Assembly (NCBI GenBank): GCA_009773615.1
Contig: WSYA01000001.1
Location: 26,536 to 90,535, forward strand
Origin: Gallionellaceae bacterium
GTDB taxonomy: Bacteria; Pseudomonadota; Gammaproteobacteria; Burkholderiales; Gallionellaceae
DNA length: 64,000 bases
Direction: 5' to 3'
The stretch's first letter is position 1. Each line of letters opens with the position of its first letter. The notes under the pieces are model-generated. The model saw only the letters and a list, made by a program, of their open reading frames with translations. It searched no databases and was not told the DNA's origin. A program made the translations under genes and the position numbers. Below, in pieces: positions 7,073-39,269 of this stretch.

Positions 7073-7780
7073 ATGGTTAATACCGAACATACCTCCAAAC
7101 AGTTTGACGCCGAGCTCGAAGCGGTGCGGGCTCGCGTGTTGCAGATGGGTGGTTTGGTGGAAAGCCAGATTCGCTTGGCGATAGAGTCGCTTATTTCCGG
7201 TGATGTGGAGTTGATGAACCGGGTTATCGAAGACGACCACCGCGTTAACGCTATGGAAGTCGAAATTGACGAGAGCTGCAACCATATTCTTGTGCGCCGC
7301 CAGCCTGCGGCGGGCGATCTACGCATGATTATGACGGTGATCAAGACCATCACCGACCTTGAACGCATCGGCGACGAAGCCGAAAAGATTGCGCGTATGG
7401 CCAAGCTGTTGTCGCAAAAAGAGCGCTTGCGCCATCCGCGTTACCATCAGATCAAGCATGCTTCGGATATTGCGCTCGATATGCTGCGCAAGTCGCTGGA
7501 CTCCTTTGCGCGCCTCGATCTGAGCGCAGCTGCGCAGGTGGTACGTCAGGACGAACAGGTGGACGAAGAATTCCGCTCCATCATGCGTTATCTCATCACC
7601 TTTATGATGGAAGATCCGCGCACTATCTCCACTTCGCTGGAAATATTGTTCGTGGCCAAAGCCATCGAACGTATAGGCGACCACGCCAAAAACATGTGCG
7701 AATATGTCGTCTACATGGTCAAGGGGCGAGATGTGCGTCACGTGACGGTGGAAGAATTCGAGCGCGAAGTCGGGGCATAG
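7073..7780 (+). CDS. phoU: Phosphate signalling complex protein PhoU
   Basis: 235 aa with the duplicated E(R)IGD motif (DLERIGDEAEKIA and AIERIGDHAKNM). Confidence 0.9.
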   Translation: MVNTEHTSKQFDAELEAVRARVLQMGGLVESQIRLAIESLISGDVELMNRVIEDDHRVNAMEVEIDESCNHILVRRQPAAGDLRMIMTVIKTITDLERIGDEAEKIARMAKLLSQKERLRHPRYHQIKHASDIALDMLRKSLDSFARLDLSAAAQVVRQDEQVDEEFRSIMRYLITFMMEDPRTISTSLEILFVAKAIERIGDHAKNMCEYVVYMVKGRDVRHVTVEEFEREVGA

Positions 7781-35133: not shown

Positions 35134-36000
35134 ATGGATAAACTCGATCACTTTCTCACTCGCGCCGAAGGCCTGCTCGCCCGTCTGGAAAACATCTTGC
35201 CCGGCGCTCAGCCGCAGGCTCCCGATTGGCAAGCCGCTGCCGCCTTCCGCTGGGATCACCAGCTGCGCACCCTGCATCCCGTACCCAACTTCCAGCGCAT
35301 CGCGCTCGCCGACCTGCTCGGCATTGACGACCAGAAGCAGCGCATCCAGCAGAACACCCTGCAATTCGTGTGCGGCGGTACCGCGAACAACGTGTTGCTC
35401 TCCGGCGCACGCGGCACGGGCAAGTCGTCGTTGGTCAAAGCCCTGTTGAACGAACATGCCGCGCAAGGCCTGCGCGTGATCCAGATCGACAAGCAGGGCC
35501 TGATCGACCTGTCGCACATCGTCGGCCTCGTGCAAGGTCGCGCCGAGCGTTTCATCCTGTATTGCGACGACCTCTCCTTCAACGATGCAGATCCCGGTTA
35601 TCAATCTCTCAAAGCCGCGCTGGATGGTGATCTGGTGGCGTTCTCCGACAACCTGCTGATCTACGCGACATCGAATCGCCGCCATTTGATGCCGGACTAC
35701 ATGCAGGACAACCTCGCCACCAAGCACGTTGGCGACGAAGTGCATCCGGCGGAAAGCGTGGAAGAAAAGGTGTCGCTGTCCGAGCGCTTCGGGCTGTGGA
35801 TTTCGTTTTATCCGTTTGCACAGGATGAGTATCTCGCGGTGGCGGGGCATTGGCTGGCGCATCACGGGTGGGGGCAGGGTATGACGGATGAAGTGCGCAC
35901 GGCGGCGTTGCAGTGGTCGTTGATGCGGGGTTCGCGCAGCGGGAGAGTGGCGGGGCAGTTTGCGAAGGATTGGTGCGGACGCTCGTCATTCCGGGCTTGA
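35134..36000 (+). CDS. DUF815-type P-loop ATPase
   Basis: MDKLDHFL... start at 35134, after the repeat. Walker A is LLSGARGTGKSSLVKAL. The ORF-track extension to 34696 overlaps argJ and the repeat. Confidence 0.75.
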   Translation: MDKLDHFLTRAEGLLARLENILPGAQPQAPDWQAAAAFRWDHQLRTLHPVPNFQRIALADLLGIDDQKQRIQQNTLQFVCGGTANNVLLSGARGTGKSSLVKALLNEHAAQGLRVIQIDKQGLIDLSHIVGLVQGRAERFILYCDDLSFNDADPGYQSLKAALDGDLVAFSDNLLIYATSNRRHLMPDYMQDNLATKHVGDEVHPAESVEEKVSLSERFGLWISFYPFAQDEYLAVAGHWLAHHGWGQGMTDEVRTAALQWSLMRGSRSGRVAGQFAKDWCGRSSFRA

Positions 36001-36008
36001 CCCGGAAT
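35988..36008. repeat. REP-like hairpin ATTCCGGG-CTTGA-CCCGGAAT overlapping the stop codon of the DUF815 gene
   Basis: Perfect 8-bp stem. The TGA at 35998-36000 lies in the loop. Confidence 0.7.
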
Positions 36009-36101
36009 CCAGTTAAATACAAAAGGCAGTAGCTCGTGAACACTCCTTTTAGACATCTCAAATGAGATACTGTGGGCCGATTTTCTGAATGGAAAATAGT
36101 G

Positions 36102-36329
36102 ATGACTACCTCAACAATGATTCATGTGCGCGTTGATAATGAAGTTAACACGCAAGCAGCGGAAGTACTAGAAGCGATAGGTCTATCAGTTTCGGATGCG
36201 GTAAGGCTTTTTCTGAAACGCGTGGTGGCAGAGCAGGGTTTGCCCATCGAGCTCAAAGTGCCGAACGTTGAAACTCGTGCCGCAATGGAAGAGTCGCGTG
36301 CCATGATTCGCGCGCGCCGCGCCCGCTAA
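36102..36329 (+). CDS. RelB/DinJ-family antitoxin-like protein, no adjacent toxin, possibly 3'-truncated
   Basis: MTTSTMIHVRVDNEVNTQAAEVLEAIGLSVSDAVRLFLKRVVAEQGLPIELKVPN is the DinJ/RelB ribbon-helix-helix pattern. The stop codon TAA (36327-36329) is the first three bases of the flanking inverted repeat. Confidence 0.7.
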   Translation: MTTSTMIHVRVDNEVNTQAAEVLEAIGLSVSDAVRLFLKRVVAEQGLPIELKVPNVETRAAMEESRAMIRARRAR

Positions 36330-36659
36330 ACCGTTCGTCCTGACTAGACGTAGCCGTATAGAAGGATGGGCGAAGCCCGCTGGTTTGTTTATTCAAAGTC
36401 AACATCGTCGGGGGTAGCCCGACAGCTAGTCACTTTCTTTTGCTTCGCCAAAAAGAAAGTAACCCAAGAAAAGGCGACCCCGGTTTGCCGCCCCTTCGGG
36501 GTTCCCTCGATCATTCGCAAACAAGCGGGGCTGCGGAACTCGCGCTACGCGCTCAGACAGTCCTCGCCTAAACCTCCGCTTGTTTGCGAATGATCGAGGC
36601 GGCGCACAGGGGAGGGAAAATCAAATTCAAAATCTAAGAGTGGGCACTTTGTGCCCACT
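36327..36659 (+). repeat. Structured repeat unit, left copy (IR-L, 333 bp)
   Basis: It shares long identical blocks with the reverse complement of 37889..38263, for example CGTCGGGGGTAGCCCGACAGCTAGTCACTTTCTTTTGCTTCGCCAAAAAGAAAGTAACC. It contains at least five hairpins. Confidence 0.85.
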
Positions 36660-36746
36660 TGACTAAGCGTGATGCGCGTAGTCAAAACAACTCTATTCCG
36701 GTACATTCTATTCTTCTTGCCCAACTTAACTTAGCCAATATTGATT

Positions 36747-37880
36747 ATGTATAACTTCGACTACATTACATCAAAAGAATTTCGAAACTCATTAGAGGCT
36801 GACTATACCGAAATGCATAGCTGTGCCGATGTGAAGGCTTGGAAAAGCGTGCAGGTGCTAGCAGGTAGCATCATTGAAACTTTGCTAATTGACTATTTGT
36901 CCGCAACGAAAAATACTGAAAGGCCATCCAAGGATCCCCTAAAGTTAGATTTGGCAGAAGCTATTTCAATATGCAGAAAAGAGAAGGTTTTGTCTGATAG
37001 AACGGCTGATTTATGTAGCGTTATTAAATCCTATCGGAATTTGATTCATCCTGGTCGTATGCTGCGCCTAGGTGAACAAGCACCAGATCAAGGAAGTGCA
37101 ACAATTGCAACTGCCTTAATTGAAATGATCACAAATGAGCTTGCTGAAACTATGCGTGCATCGGTCGGCCTCACTGCTGAGCAGATACTTTCAAAAATTC
37201 AGCGCGACGCAAATTCATTGAATATTTTGAAACATCTATTGGTAGAGGTTTCGGAGCATGAAAAAATACGTCTGTTACTGGAGTTAATACCATCTGCTCA
37301 TCAAGAGGTTATTGAAGATGATTCAATAGTTGAATTTGATGAGTTTGTTAAACGAAAAAAGCACCTTGAGTTGGCTTACCAAGTCATCCTTGATTCAGTA
37401 AGCGATGAAGCTAGGAAACGCATAGCATCAGAATATGTTCGTGTACTTAGAGAAGAGGATGGGCAAACGGTGCAGCGCTATGGAAAGGCATTTTTTAAGC
37501 CACGTGATATGAAATTCTTATCTGGATCATCTAAATTGATGGTGAGCGAGCATTTGCTTGGAAATATGCCTCCGGTTTTTAATTCGGAGTCCTCTTTTAA
37601 TGTAGCTACAGGTCTTGCTGGTTATCTTGATTCATCGTTAATTTCAAAATGGCTAGACCCGTTTGTACGCACACTTGTTTCCTCGCTTGATGATTCTATT
37701 AAGACAAGATGTCGAGCTACGTTAATTATGGAAACGTGGTTAATAGGCAATGAAAATTTACAAGCATTATTGAAGCGATTGGACACATATATCAGCATCT
37801 ATAAATCAAATAATGACTCTGTTAAAAGTGAATTGATCCAGTCAATAAGAAATGAAATTGAAATAGATAACACAATTTAG
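36747..37880 (+). CDS. Hypothetical protein, 377 aa, AT-rich; N-terminal HEPN-like helical domain (tentative) and C-terminal helical-repeat region
   Basis: Long intact ORF (TTG at 36741, first ATG at 36747) in a region where spot-counted lines are 25-45% GC against about 63% in the flanks. The motif SVIKSYRNLIHPGRMLR resembles the HEPN R-x(4-6)-H motif but is one residue short. No obvious Shine-Dalgarno. Confidence 0.7.
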   Translation: MYNFDYITSKEFRNSLEADYTEMHSCADVKAWKSVQVLAGSIIETLLIDYLSATKNTERPSKDPLKLDLAEAISICRKEKVLSDRTADLCSVIKSYRNLIHPGRMLRLGEQAPDQGSATIATALIEMITNELAETMRASVGLTAEQILSKIQRDANSLNILKHLLVEVSEHEKIRLLLELIPSAHQEVIEDDSIVEFDEFVKRKKHLELAYQVILDSVSDEARKRIASEYVRVLREEDGQTVQRYGKAFFKPRDMKFLSGSSKLMVSEHLLGNMPPVFNSESSFNVATGLAGYLDSSLISKWLDPFVRTLVSSLDDSIKTRCRATLIMETWLIGNENLQALLKRLDTYISIYKSNNDSVKSELIQSIRNEIEIDNTI

Positions 37881-37888
37881 CAAAGAAT

Positions 37889-37926
37889 GATGGGCACGAA
37901 GTGCCCATCGTGTGGTTTTGGGTTTT
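37889..37926 (+). terminator. Intrinsic terminator 9 nt after the orphan ORF (also the inner hairpin of IR-R)
   Basis: GATGGGCAC-GAA-GTGCCCATC followed by GTGTGGTTTTGGGTTTTG. Confidence 0.65.
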
Positions 37927-38263
37927 GACTCTCTATCCCCTGTGCGCCGCCGAGTAGCGCAGGCTGGTCAGGGGATTTCGGCGAGGACTGTCTGAGCGCG
38001 AAGCGCGAGTTCCGCAGCCGCCTGACCAGTCGAGCAACGCAGGGAACCCACGAAGTGGGCGGTAAACCGGGGTCGCCTTTTCTTTGGTTACTTTCTTTTT
38101 GGCGAAGCAAAAGAAAGTGACTAGCTGTCGGGCTACCCCCGACGGTTTTGCATTTGATTTAAATTGTTGGGTTACGCTGCGCTAACCCAACCTACAAAAC
38201 CGGCGGGCTTCGCCCATCCTTCGATACACCGCGCTATGCGCGGCACTCAGGACGAACGGTTTA
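37889..38263 (-). repeat. Structured repeat unit, right copy (IR-R, 375 bp, inverted)
   Basis: Its reverse complement aligns module by module with IR-L. It carries an extra hairpin TTGGGTTACGCTGCGCTAACCCAA (38167-38190). Confidence 0.85.
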
Positions 38264-38264
38264 C

Positions 38265-39269
38265 GTGAAATTAAAAATTAGAGATGCCGCTTTGAATACA
38301 CAAACCGAAAAGATAGTAGAAGTCTCCGCTGCCGTTCTGCAACGCCCCGACGGCTCCTTCCTCCTCGCGCAACGTCCCGCCGATAAAATCTGGGCCGGCT
38401 ATTGGGAATTCCCCGGCGGCAAAATCGAGCCGGGCGAAACAGCGCATCACGCTTTGGTGCGCGAACTGCGCGAAGAGTTGGGCATCGAAGTGCAAACTGC
38501 CTATCCGTGGCTTACGCGAGTGTTCACTTATCCGCATGCCACGGTGCGTCTGAGTTTCTTTCGCGTGACAGAGTGGAGCGGGGAGATGCATCCGCATGAA
38601 GGGCAGGAGTTTGCTTGGCAAGAGCCCCTCTCCCTAACCCTCACTCAGGGAGAGGAGAGAGGACGGTTATCGGTTGATCCTATCCTCCCCGCCAACGCCC
38701 CCATCCTGCGCGCGCTGGAATTGTCCTCCTTATATGCCATCAGCAATGCCGCCGAGCTGGGCGTGGAGCCGTTTCTGGAAAGGCTGAAAGCCAAGCTGGA
38801 TATGGGTTTGCGGCTGGTGCAGTTGCGCGAAAAGAATCTCTCCCGCGACGAGTTGCGCGCGCTGGCGCGTCGCGTCGTGGCATTGGCTCATGCACGCGGT
38901 GCGAAGGTGCTGCTCAACGGCGATGTGGCGCTGGCGCAGGAGGTGGGTGCGGATGGCGTGCAGCTGACCGCCACGCAGCTTGCGGAGCTAACTGAACGCC
39001 CCGTTCTGGATTGGTGTGCGGCGTCCTGCCACAACGCGGAGGAGTTGCGCCGTGCGGAAGTATTGGGTTGCGATTTCGCGCTGTTGAGTCCTGTGTTGCC
39101 GACTAAATCACATCCGGGTGCACCGCATCTGGGCTGGGATAACTTCGCCTCGATTGCGGCGGGTTCGTCTATTCCGGTGTATGCGCTGGGCGGTTTGACT
39201 AGCGACGATATGCAAAGCGCATGGCAGCGCGGCGCACACGGTATCGCCTTATTGCGTCAGGCTTGGTGA
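38265..39269 (+). CDS. NUDIX (MutT-like) hydrolase fused to a ThiE/TENI-like domain
   Basis: 334 aa. The Nudix box is [24 protein letters not shown]. The C-terminal half (LVQLREK...GADGVQL...YALGG) resembles a thiamine-phosphate synthase fold. The GTG start lies 2 nt after IR-R; a TTG at about 38292 is an alternative. Confidence 0.8.

Follow-up and report, generated by a model that had tools for sequence, protein, structure and literature searches.

A single gene of low GC content in a Gallionellaceae bacterium lies between two long, inverted, structured repeat units, and units of the same family frame dozens of different single low-GC accessory genes, often for phage defence, in related iron- and sulfur-oxidising bacteria. 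The gene is located in a stretch of 64,000 nucleotides of contig WSYA01000001.1 (assembly GCA_009773615.1, positions 26,536 to 90,535 of the forward strand), which is called the window below; coordinates without a locus name are window positions. The repeat units are called the left and right arms and the gene between them the cargo gene. A first-pass annotation, made from the sequence, had described a low-GC open reading frame (ORF) between two inverted structured units, and a repeat search together with a GC profile confirmed this description. The segment is read here, with modest confidence, as a 'loaded' member of a widespread family of repeat dimers of the kind represented by repetitive extragenic palindromes (REPs), bacterial interspersed mosaic elements (BIMEs) and REP doublets forming hairpins (REPINs), and as an insulated landing or exchange site for foreign genes. 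Both REPs and triplex repeats abound, and their roles are debated. Many defence islets occupy 'hot spots' that have no mobility genes, and the route by which they arrive is an open question.

A low-GC gene between two facing arms

The GC content falls to 0.38–0.42 over 36600-37950, compared with 0.55–0.64 in the adjoining genes; for the ORF itself the value is ~0.39, against ~0.58 in the flanks. The arms and their modules are listed in Table 1, along with the inverted-repeat blocks detected in a repeat search of 35800-38800, which are collinear in both arms. A gapped alignment of the two arms gives 81% column identity, and the differences are module-sized: the GTAG-tagged hairpin is present in the right arm only, and the ~24-bp stem around the conserved 40-nt loop (36529-36568 / 37980-38019) has been swapped for a different stem that still pairs. 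The terminal 17-mer has exactly two copies in the window (0.13 expected at up to 3 mismatches). Window-wide, there is no further copy of the arms and no other inverted repeat longer than 31 nt. This single arm pair surrounds the region's one strongly low-GC gene. Relative to shuffled sequences, the left arm folds with z = -7.0 as single-stranded DNA and the right arm with z = -4.2 as plus-strand RNA.

The cassette-like appearance without a recombinase, as first described, holds: no transposase or integrase is called within ~10 kb of the element, and no REP-associated tyrosine transposase (RAYT) is found in the 21 kb around it. The window sequence is identical to ENA contig k139_866231. The ORF and the inner arm ends were found again in 9 independent Logan assemblies, all 9 of which encode the exact protein, and the 9 unitigs stop inside the arms.

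Table 1. Features of the arm-framed segment and its neighbours (window coordinates; arm modules run from outside to inside in the left arm and from inside to outside in the right arm)
Feature	Position	Strand	Description
REP-A	35985..36012	unassigned	palindromic dRS3-like repeat GTCATTCCGGGCTTGACCCGGAATCCAG; provides the last codons and TGA stop of the DUF815 ATPase gene
relB/dinJ-like gene	36102..36329	+	solitary RelB/DinJ-family antitoxin gene; 75 aa from ATG; outside the left arm
Left arm	36327..36659	+	composite repeat unit
Left outer REP-type module	36331-36343; 36367-36379		terminus motif; hairpin
Left CGTC hairpin	36406-36423		CGTCGGGGGTAGCCCGAC
Left triplex motif	36433..36474	+	predicted fold-back triplex: CTTTCTTTT (loop GCTTCGCCA) AAAAGAAAG (TAACC) CAAGAAAAGG
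Left multi-stem module	36473-36613		variable 24-bp stem 36504-36528/36576-36599; conserved loop 36529-36568
Left inner hairpin	36641-36657
Left terminator-like hairpins	36659-36639; 36483-36464	-	mirror image of those in the right arm
Cargo gene	36747..37880	+	ATG 36747 to TAG 37880; 377 aa; all-helical prediction; GC ~0.39
Right arm	37889..38263	-	module order of the left arm, reverse complement
Right inner hairpin	37891-37907
Right closing motif	37936-37951
Right variable stem	37964-37972/38021-38029		encloses loop 37980-38019
Right triplex motif	38076-38117
Right CGTC hairpin	38127-38144		CGTCGGGGGTAGCCCGAC
Right extra GTAG-tagged REP	38166-38195		GTAGGTTGGGTTAGCGCAGCGTAACCCAAC
Right outer module	38204-38216; 38247-38259		hairpin; terminus motif
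Right terminator-like hairpins	37887-37911; 38057-38078; 38123-38147	+	outward, read by the cargo transcript; within 37887..38147
mutT-thiE fusion gene	38265..39269	+	Nudix + TMP-TENI; abuts the right arm
Inverted block, 106 nt	36388-36493 / 38057-38162		92% complementary
Inverted block, 49 nt	36529-36577 / 37971-38019		92%
Inverted block, 31 nt	36356-36386 / 38197-38227		94%
Inverted block, 35 nt	36598-36632 / 37917-37951		80%
Outer ends, 17 nt	36327-36343 / 38247-38263		100%

Architecture of the arms

An alignment of 58 arm cores shows that the arms, which are ~210-375 nt long, consist of a fixed chain of single-strand structures. The first is a CG(T/C)CGGG..CCCG(A/G)C hairpin, whose stem covaries between T-A and C-G across the 58 arms and whose loop base covaries with a downstream base (TAGC..GCTA, TTGC..GCAA, TGGC..GCCA, CAGC..GCTG). 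It is followed by a pyrimidine/purine hairpin and a purine tract, by GGCGACCCC, and by a module closed by the helix GCCGCC..GGCGGC, in which a variable stem with at least 3 unrelated versions surrounds a conserved loop of type A or B. The chain then continues with CAGGGGA and ends in an A-rich stretch and a terminal GC hairpin. The arms are often capped by other REP modules, namely a CCGTTCGTCCTGA module or GTAG REPs. Of the 30 pairs predicted in the arms by RNAalifold, 11 show compensatory double changes. The CGTC and GTAG hairpins of Table 1 have the features by which REPs are defined, being GC-rich imperfect palindromes (20-40 nt in the definition) with a GTAG or CGTC tag.

In the second structure of the chain, a pyrimidine stem and a purine stem are followed by a mirror-repeat purine tract. 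Both arms carry it in the form CTTTCTTTT - 9 nt - AAAAGAAAG - TAACC - (C/A)AAGAAAAG, which corresponds to an ITxF-type motif (stems of at least 8 nt, at most 1 mismatch). Changes in the purine strand (AAAAGAAAG, AAGAAAAAG, AAGAAAAG, AAAGAAAAG) are accompanied by mirror-image changes in the tract (AAAGAAAAGG, AAAAAGAAGG, AAAAGAAGG, AAAAGAAAGG), and the mirror is kept in the variant classes AAGAAAAAG with AAAAAGAAGG, AAGAAAAG with AAAAGAAGG, and AAAGAAAAG with AAAAGAAAGG. The mirror relation fits better in 38 of 52 informative variants and the direct relation in 14. The pyrimidine strand, the purine strand and the following tract change together, both in the 58-arm alignment and in L011 (2990-3040 and 3610-3660; L-numbers denote loci fetched from other genomes). 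At the level of sequence, this three-way covariation is the signature of a predicted fold-back intramolecular triplex. The design would be R·R-Y on the unit strand and Y·R-Y / U·A-U on the complementary strand, read outward from the cargo. On this outward-read strand, a U·A-U/C+·G-C triple helix is predicted directly upstream of a terminator hairpin, and the motif may possibly be a bacterial 3'-end triple-helix element.

Terminator-like sites are enriched in 35900-38400, with 10 sites compared to 3.1 ± 1.9 in shuffles, and the sites within the arms mostly face away from the centre. Among 151 arms, 47% have an outward T-run after the CGTC hairpin, against 4.6% of controls. The arms contain no convincing promoter. 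At gathering thresholds, Rfam models matched the window only at RNase P, elsewhere in the window, and a search of the region at E up to 10 returned few sub-threshold matches at chance level.

The arm family across genomes

A collection of species-representative genomes was scanned with an exact core pattern (GAAAGTAACCNAAGAAAAGGCGACCCC), so that the scan is seeded by the core. The pattern occurs in at least 119 loci. Among the matches listed are Gallionella, Sideroxydans, Ferrigenium, Thiobacillus, metagenome-assembled genomes (MAGs) of other Nitrosomonadales and Hydrogenophilales, Variovorax, Silvimonas, Rhizobacter, Ottowia, a Neisseriaceae isolate and a few gammaproteobacterial MAGs. Mapping of the window arms onto all fetched loci located 205 cores in 144 loci. 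Neighbouring cores within 6 kb in these loci were taken as a pair, called short if less than 900 bp separates the cores and long otherwise. Fifty-five of the 59 neighbouring pairs (28 short, 27 long) are convergent, with a plus core followed by a minus core as in the window. The family is thus extragenic and multi-copy, with inverted partners and module mosaics that differ by locus, as is characteristic of REPs and BIMEs. In all 27 long pairs the inner GC content is lower than that of the flanks, the difference averaging -0.157.

A long pair encloses a single ORF, or in rare cases two or three, of 140-520 aa and on either strand; across loci, ~11 cargo genes lie on the minus strand and 10 on the plus strand. 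Other copies do flank cargo genes, a point that the first-pass annotation had proposed to check, and the cargo differs from pair to pair. Comparison of 26 inner segments from the genome collection found no cargo in common, the sole match being that of the window ORF with its homologue in L013. Pfam matches among the cargo of all loci, including the orthologous site, comprise RelA_SpoT, Mrr, FRG, NTP_transf_2, a PD40 propeller, DUF2971, DUF5677, DUF4747, HdeA and HigB/HTH. Many cargo ORFs have no family, and most cargo has no Pfam or PADLOC assignment. Four of the 10 cargo proteins tested gave strong PADLOC matches: PDC-S33 (3e-104), PDC-M05A (1e-82), PDC-S15 and Mrr/mREase_IV (type IV restriction).

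A BLAST search of both arms against plasmids matched only the ~50-nt core hairpin, in Variovorax and Ilyobacter. The match on a Variovorax chromid led to the first 'empty' palindrome, an inverted arm pair with no gene between. The ~50-nt triplex/hairpin core (GTTACTTTCTTTGCTTGCCCAAAGAAAGTAACCAAAGAAAAGGCACCCC) is 85-98% identical in L012 (an Ilyobacter polytropus megaplasmid, 6 places) and in L053 (a Rheinheimera MAG). The presence of the core in a fusobacterium and in gammaproteobacteria, outside the betaproteobacterial hosts, suggests either horizontal spread or strong constraint on the core module alone. Viral contigs gave no match in exact-pattern scans with the terminus, hairpin and loop.

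Termini and relatedness of partner arms

The identical 17-nt ends were initially taken for terminal inverted repeats. Their identity stands, but they are not the ends of a transposon: the 17-nt terminus opens a distinct outer module of REP type, CCGTTCG[TC][CG]CTGA...hairpin, which recurs in 51 copies in 1.49 Mb of fetched loci. This module lies mostly 95-180 nt outside the core, in the same orientation as the core, in more than 30 arms, and on its own it also makes small dimers around a single central CGCC hairpin, for example between argJ and mutT-thiE in L144 and L152. Other pairs end with GTAG REPs, with GTCATTGCGAGCGAAGCGAAGCAAT, with TM_ECO-type CCCTCTCCC repeats or with the CGTC hairpin itself, and many begin at an identical CAAAATCAACA-CGYCGGGGG end. 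Outer boundaries and module sets therefore vary among pairs. Neither a target-site duplication nor any other direct repeat was found where the window element, or any of 50 other pairs, joins the flanking DNA.

In only 3 of 13 pairs is an arm's nearest relative its own partner, and 16 arms from other genomes are nearer to the left arm of the window than its own right arm is. The arms are 'heterodimers'. Variable ends, the lack of a target-site duplication, the separate outer module and the heterodimeric arms argue against a single transposon with its own terminal inverted repeats, and the heterodimeric arms also argue against a recent local inverted duplication.

The orthologous site in relatives

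The site was compared in 80 loci with a mutT-thiE orthologue (70-86% amino acid identity) from Joint Genome Institute (JGI) metagenomes. In at least 24 of these relatives the DUF815 and mutT-thiE genes overlap or are no more than 13 bp apart (...GGACGG CATGTCGCAAAAT...), which bears out the view that the window segment is an insertion in a tight gene context. This empty junction is the ancestral state. The syntenic comparison proposed earlier thus yielded the empty site, but not the target-site duplication that was to be sought along with it. Some relatives lack DUF815 between argJ and mutT-thiE, so that even this 'conserved' gene varies in its presence at the hot spot.

Five relatives (L139, L146, L187, L144 and L152) have fills of 96-320 bp that consist of REPs only and resemble the window element minus the DNA between its two CGTC hairpins, with one merged hairpin left. 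Other relatives carry arm pairs with differing cargo. The site holds DUF2971, DUF5677, DUF4747, DUF4145-like and HdeA-like proteins, a HigB/HTH pair (which fills the argJ/mutT-thiE gap in L168), a frameshifted protease-like gene, an IS30 transposase and a REPtron. In 13 loaded loci the cargo is different in every case save one duplicate contig pair. The REPtron, at the argJ/mutT-thiE junction of L210, encodes a 181-aa RAYT-like Y1 transposase (2128-2673) with the HUH motif 'HLH' and the tyrosine in 'DYIHFNPVKHG'; it is flanked by its own GTAGGGTGCAT..ATGCACC REPs (2040-2125, 2676-2700) and truncates the plus arm.

A leader, AGAGAT..CGTTGAA, and a remodelled MutT N-terminus are shared by the REP-bearing lineages, usually directly after a GTAG REP. 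The leader occurs at this locus only, which implies that the colonised junction has been inherited vertically in a Gallionellaceae clade, with variable content. In L172 and L153, arms and cargo still abut mutT-thiE and the upstream genes differ, so the arms coincide with synteny breakpoints. In place of argJ-DUF815, the upstream region of L172 (2400-5980) contains a LytS/LytTR two-component pair and that of L153 (1600-5990) contains RlpA and phospholipase A1. A solo plus arm lies between argJ and DUF815 in L160, L176, L183, L155 and L196, and some of these loci have a small HdeA-like ORF in a DUF815-mutT-thiE gap of 400-540 bp.

The cargo gene and its protein

The ORF had been called an orphan, which proved incorrect: 306 homologues of the same length were found in Gallionella, Burkholderia, Paraburkholderia and Caballeronia. 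Most have no such arms and lie in integrase- or prophage-like islands or in other contexts. The protein gave no match at E up to 0.1 in Pfam, NCBIfam or PADLOC and no sequence match in a profile search of the PDB. Weak matches to DUF4145 were obtained for 14 of 58 homologues.

The structure search that had been suggested for the ORF was informative. An AlphaFold (AF2) model built with the family alignment is all-helical, with a predicted local distance difference test (pLDDT) score of 93.8. The N-terminal domain was modelled separately because the fold search with the whole chain returned only generic ARM/HEAT solenoids. The separate model of the N-terminal 147 residues (pLDDT 88.6) matched HEPN proteins in 17 of the 18 top PDB hits, weakly but consistently (E 0.07-0.6, template modelling (TM) score 0.4-0.58); these include YutE, TT1696, ST0689, sacsin HEPN, HepT-type toxins, Csm6' and AbiV. 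An invariant S-x-R-N-L-I-H-P-x-R motif at residues 95-104 is located where HEPN active sites lie, with R97-N-L-I-H101 in an Rx3H spacing, compared with Rx4-6H in the HEPN superfamily. On the basis of these models, the N-terminal domain (residues ~1-145) is predicted to be HEPN-like and the C-terminal part an ARM/HEAT-like solenoid, and the cargo is probably a HEPN-like protein of defence or toxin type.

The possibility that this ORF family is always framed by arms was rejected, as only the window and, in part, L013 show such framing. The Gallionella sp. homologue in L013 lies at a different locus, with a partial arm upstream and the innermost module downstream. Between the degraded right arm of L013 and a RelE/ParE-type 'addiction module killer' gene there is a perfect (CTACCAG)n tandem array of ~15 copies (7319-7421). 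In L015-L017, a homologue with 57% identity sits between inverted copies of another REP family (GGGGACACCTTACTTAATTCA; TGAATTAAGTAAGGTGTCCCCAGAAT), adjoins the 3' and 5' ends of RAYT/IS200-like genes (e.g. L017 100-130, 1440-1960) and lies directly upstream of a YoeB-type toxin remnant, a C-terminal fragment. In another host, and with other REPs, this cargo family thus again sits between inverted repeats.

Origin of the arm-framed segment

If the segment is a loaded repeat dimer, the arms would be resident host repeats rather than the ends of one transposon, and they would make the site a recombination-prone, insertion-tolerant landing or exchange pad. Their hairpin and triplex structures may stall replication and break, as has been proposed for triplex repeats; alternatively, arms in donor and recipient may recombine as portable homology. 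DNA would then be gained, swapped or lost between partner hairpins, with the CGTC hairpins as the joints for gain or loss of the inner part, and the REP-only fills of L139, L144 and L146 could be collapse products or precursors joined at the CGTC hairpin. The outward terminators would insulate the neighbouring operon from cargo transcription, and the putative triple-helix 3' element would stabilise the cargo mRNA in either insertion orientation.

Several points weigh against this interpretation. The capture mechanism is inferred, and no capture or exchange event is seen directly in these loci. All relatives at the orthologous site are at least 13% diverged in mutT-thiE, so the turnover there could also represent several independent insertions. 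The majority of the loci come from MAG contigs, in which misassembly at repeats is possible; the window is less exposed to this concern because the identical ENA contig and the 9 Logan unitigs back it. The mirror covariation is carried by only 4-5 independent variant classes, an A/T-rich purine-motif triplex would be weak as DNA, and both the terminator and the triplex functions are predictions from sequence. Finally, the recurrent terminus at a fixed distance (~95-180 nt) from the core and the partial arm beside the ORF homologue at another locus in L013 fit an element that moves as a unit.

A more far-reaching proposal, which is put forward tentatively, would see in the arms a 'REP-framed cassette' system dedicated to gene capture and poor in recombinases. 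Facing hairpin/triplex arms would act as a programmed fragile or recombinogenic centre, or as a substrate for an unlinked HUH/RAYT-like enzyme; single defence genes would be gained, exchanged among loci and genomes and lost again, with outward terminators and a bacterial triple-helix 3'-end stabiliser insulating them transcriptionally. If true, host repeats would perform an integron-like function across Gallionellaceae, Thiobacillus and Comamonadaceae.

The segment is unlikely to be a non-autonomous transposon, that is, a mobile insertion cassette (MIC), a giant MITE (miniature inverted-repeat transposable element) or a giant REPIN, in which arms and cargo travel together, moved in trans by a RAYT/IS200-like HUH enzyme, or by some other transposase, that recognises the hairpin ends, with empty palindromes as deletion derivatives. 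Such an element would account for the placement of the terminus CCGTTCG[TC][CG]CTGA in more than 30 arms, for the CAAAATCAACA-CGYCGGGGG end that many pairs share, for the L013 arrangement, for the clean empty junctions and for the RAYT gene at the same hot spot in L210. HUH transposition leaves no target duplication, so the lack of one is compatible with this class of enzyme. However, no transposase lies within ~10 kb, the ends and module sets vary by pair with no target-site duplication, and partners are usually not mutual closest relatives. The RAYT of L210 has its own, different GTAGGGTGCAT REPs and truncates an arm, and other homologues of the ORF have no arms. Furthermore, the GTAG REP and leader at mutT-thiE are shared vertically while the cargo differs, and CGTC REPs are without a known dedicated transposase (PMC3733652).

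It is improbable that the arms encode structured RNAs (small RNA, antisense or cis-regulatory) that control a toxic cargo gene as an RNA antitoxin would, with the inverted layout providing sense and antisense copies. The compensatory changes in 11 of 30 predicted pairs, the strong folding z-scores, the conserved loops in variable stems and the potential toxicity of a HEPN-type cargo agree with this explanation, but the covariation fits single-stranded DNA hairpins equally well. In addition, 28 short arm pairs have no cargo, the cargo elsewhere is unrelated and in either orientation, Rfam offers no matching family even with E allowed up to 10, and the arms lack a convincing promoter.

Coincidence, meaning an acquired gene that lies between ordinary REP clusters of a REP-rich genome with no special relation between arms and gene, is given little credence. 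The modules are generic REP types that occur in many contexts, and IS30, REPtron and toxin-antitoxin genes also land at the junction. The count of 55 convergent pairs against 4 others, together with lower-GC DNA in 27 of 27 long pairs, is strong evidence to the contrary; generic REP clusters with no preferred inverted pairing, which the first-pass annotation had named as the finding that would count against it, are not what the family shows. The module order is also mirrored on both sides, and the sole arm pair of the 64-kb window brackets the one strongly low-GC gene of its region.

The least probable explanation is an invertible, phase-variable segment in which the 92%-identical 106-nt blocks undergo homologous recombination that inverts the cargo and switches its expression: long inverted repeats do lie ~1.2 kb apart and cargo occurs in both orientations across loci, but there is no invertase, the outward terminators on both arms make the two orientations look equivalent, and the 9 unitigs and the ENA contig show one arrangement (a weak argument, as the unitigs stop inside the arms). 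Reading of the sequences, with no dedicated search run, revealed no features in support of dif/Xer sites, attC, a retron non-coding RNA, Tn7-like ends or a fold-back inverted duplication.

One repeat family here ties facing arms, foreign low-GC DNA and defence-type single genes together, and the association is strong, quantifiable and present at many loci in several genera. This association opens several ideas to direct testing: repeat dimers as landing pads or portable homology, the insulation of an inserted gene, and a selected fold-back triple helix in bacteria. The arms are also a possible search handle for uncharacterised accessory and defence genes.

Neighbouring genes and further repeats

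The DNA between DUF815 and mutT-thiE, first put at about 2.2 kb of extra sequence, amounts to ~2.27 kb and also holds REP-A, at the DUF815 stop, and the relB-like gene. The relative L139 has REP-A at the equivalent position, and L144 and L210 carry related ATTCCC..GGGAAT forms. In Gallionellaceae, DUF815 or argJ 3' ends bear palindromes like those of Neisseria dRS3 (ATTCC(C)-N8-10-(G)GGAAT), at REP-A in the window, at 1790-1816 in L210 and at 543-568 in L144.

Both neighbours of the element are remodelled, as had been stated; the right terminus stops 1 nt (the C at 38264) short of the mutT-thiE GTG at 38265. On the left, the TAA of the RelB/DinJ-like gene (36327-36329) is formed by the first 3 nt of the terminus. 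This gene matches Pfam RelB (1.4e-16) and NCBIfam RelB_DinJ (3.8e-20) above the family cut-off, over profile positions 1-67 of 85 only. No toxin ORF follows it, so the pairing of a type II antitoxin with an adjacent RelE/YafQ-type toxin is lacking, and no homologue is present at the orthologous site in the 80 relatives. It is probably a truncated remnant of an earlier toxin-antitoxin insertion at the hot spot.

The mutT-thiE gene has a locus-specific remodelled 5' leader and N-terminus (xLKxRDxxLN), common to the relatives with REPs at the junction. A degenerate TM_ECO-type repeat (CCCCTCTCCCTAACCCTCACTCAGGGAGAGGAGAGAGG) lies in frame at 38625-38662, in the linker that joins the Nudix domain to the ThiE domain. 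At this position the linker of L172 and L153 holds another insert (…QPPFCKGG…), which is taken as REP-like from the translation alone. The differing inserts indicate that the linker seems tolerant of repeated intragenic REP insertions.

Comparison with known systems

The arms resemble REPs and BIMEs, REP dimers (PMC3733652) and REPINs (Bertels & Rainey 2011, PMC3116915) in their GC-rich tagged hairpins (CGTCGGGGGTAGCCCGAC; GTAGGTTGGGTTAGCGCAGCGTAACCCAAC). They are likewise extragenic, multi-copy modular mosaics with inverted partners that are often 'heterodimers', and CGTC REPs are not known to have a transposase of their own. Di Nocera et al. 2013 (PMC3733652) described the CGTC and GTAG REP super-families, listed 'S. 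lithotrophicus' (read here as Sideroxydans lithotrophicus) among the CGTC-positive species, and reported heterodimeric REP dimers as well as DNA inserted between dimer partners, with no transposase found for CGTC REPs. However, REPs and BIMEs are single hairpins of 20-40 nt, whereas the arms are fixed-order chains of 210-375 nt. The usual spacers of REP dimers are 20-100 bp, compared with 0.7-3.5 kb here, regularly with a foreign gene, and PMC3733652 does not link REPs systematically to low-GC, defence-like cargo. REPINs and REPtrons share the inverted pairing, but the element falls outside the class, as it spans 0.5-4 kb rather than forming a ~100-nt hairpin and has no RAYT in the 21 kb around it.

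The ITxF and TM_ECO triplex repeats, catalogued by Holder et al. 2015 (PMC4666352) as inverted pairs at hypervariable loci without mobility genes, share with the arms the succession of pyrimidine stem, loop, purine stem, short loop and mirror purine stem. They also occur as frequent inverted pairs of two subtypes at strain-hypervariable loci with no mobility genes nearby. TM_ECO-type GGGAGAGGG repeats form the outer modules of some arms (L072, L084, L133), and a degenerate copy is present in the mutT-thiE gene of the window. The catalogued motif is G/C-rich, whereas the arm motif is A/T-rich (CTTTCTTTT / AAAAGAAAG / AAAGAAAAG), is embedded in a larger conserved arm and is shown here to covary in three ways. 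Cargo genes between the pairs were unreported there.

MICs and MITE-bounded composites are like the window segment in carrying a passenger between inverted repeats with no internal transposase. They are defined by short terminal inverted repeats derived from an insertion sequence (IS) of a known family and by target-site duplications; the window element has no target duplication and no IS-related end (no ISfinder comparison made). In addition, the boundaries vary here, the arms are hundreds of nt long and non-identical, and pairs are commonly empty. The minimal mobile elements of Neisseria, together with the Neisseria intergenic mosaic elements (NIMEs) and dRS3 repeats, are likewise betaproteobacterial intergenic mosaics in which alternative cargo is exchanged between conserved flanks, presumably by homologous recombination, with no recombinase encoded, and the dRS3-like ATTCC..GGAAT palindrome of REP-A adds to the likeness. 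What defines a minimal mobile element is its conserved flanking genes rather than facing structured arms; the arm family and its architecture also differ, and the window system has no demonstrated link to natural transformation.

Integron cassettes, clusters of attC sites lacking integron-integrases (CALINs) and the pdif modules of Acinetobacter are similar in that single, promoter-poor, diverse accessory genes are delimited by structured repeats resembling recombination sites. Integron cassettes have one attC each and form head-to-tail arrays with IntI, whereas an inverted pair around a single gene, with no integrase within ~10 kb, is found here. The pdif modules are bounded by 28-bp XerC/D sites, and no dif-like sites were seen on reading the sequences (no dedicated search). 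The arms differ from both in that they also occur empty. The original judgement that the segment matches neither MITEs, nor integron cassettes, nor REPtrons agrees with these comparisons. The accompanying statement that no described element type is recognisable stands in part: a limited literature search found no named element type with the whole architecture, but the building blocks belong to described classes (PMC3733652, PMC4666352). While the components are known, three aspects are undescribed in the literature found in this limited search, namely the long fixed-order arms, the near-obligate facing arrangement of arms around single low-GC, often defence-type genes in several betaproteobacterial families, and the three-way covariation of the triplex motif.

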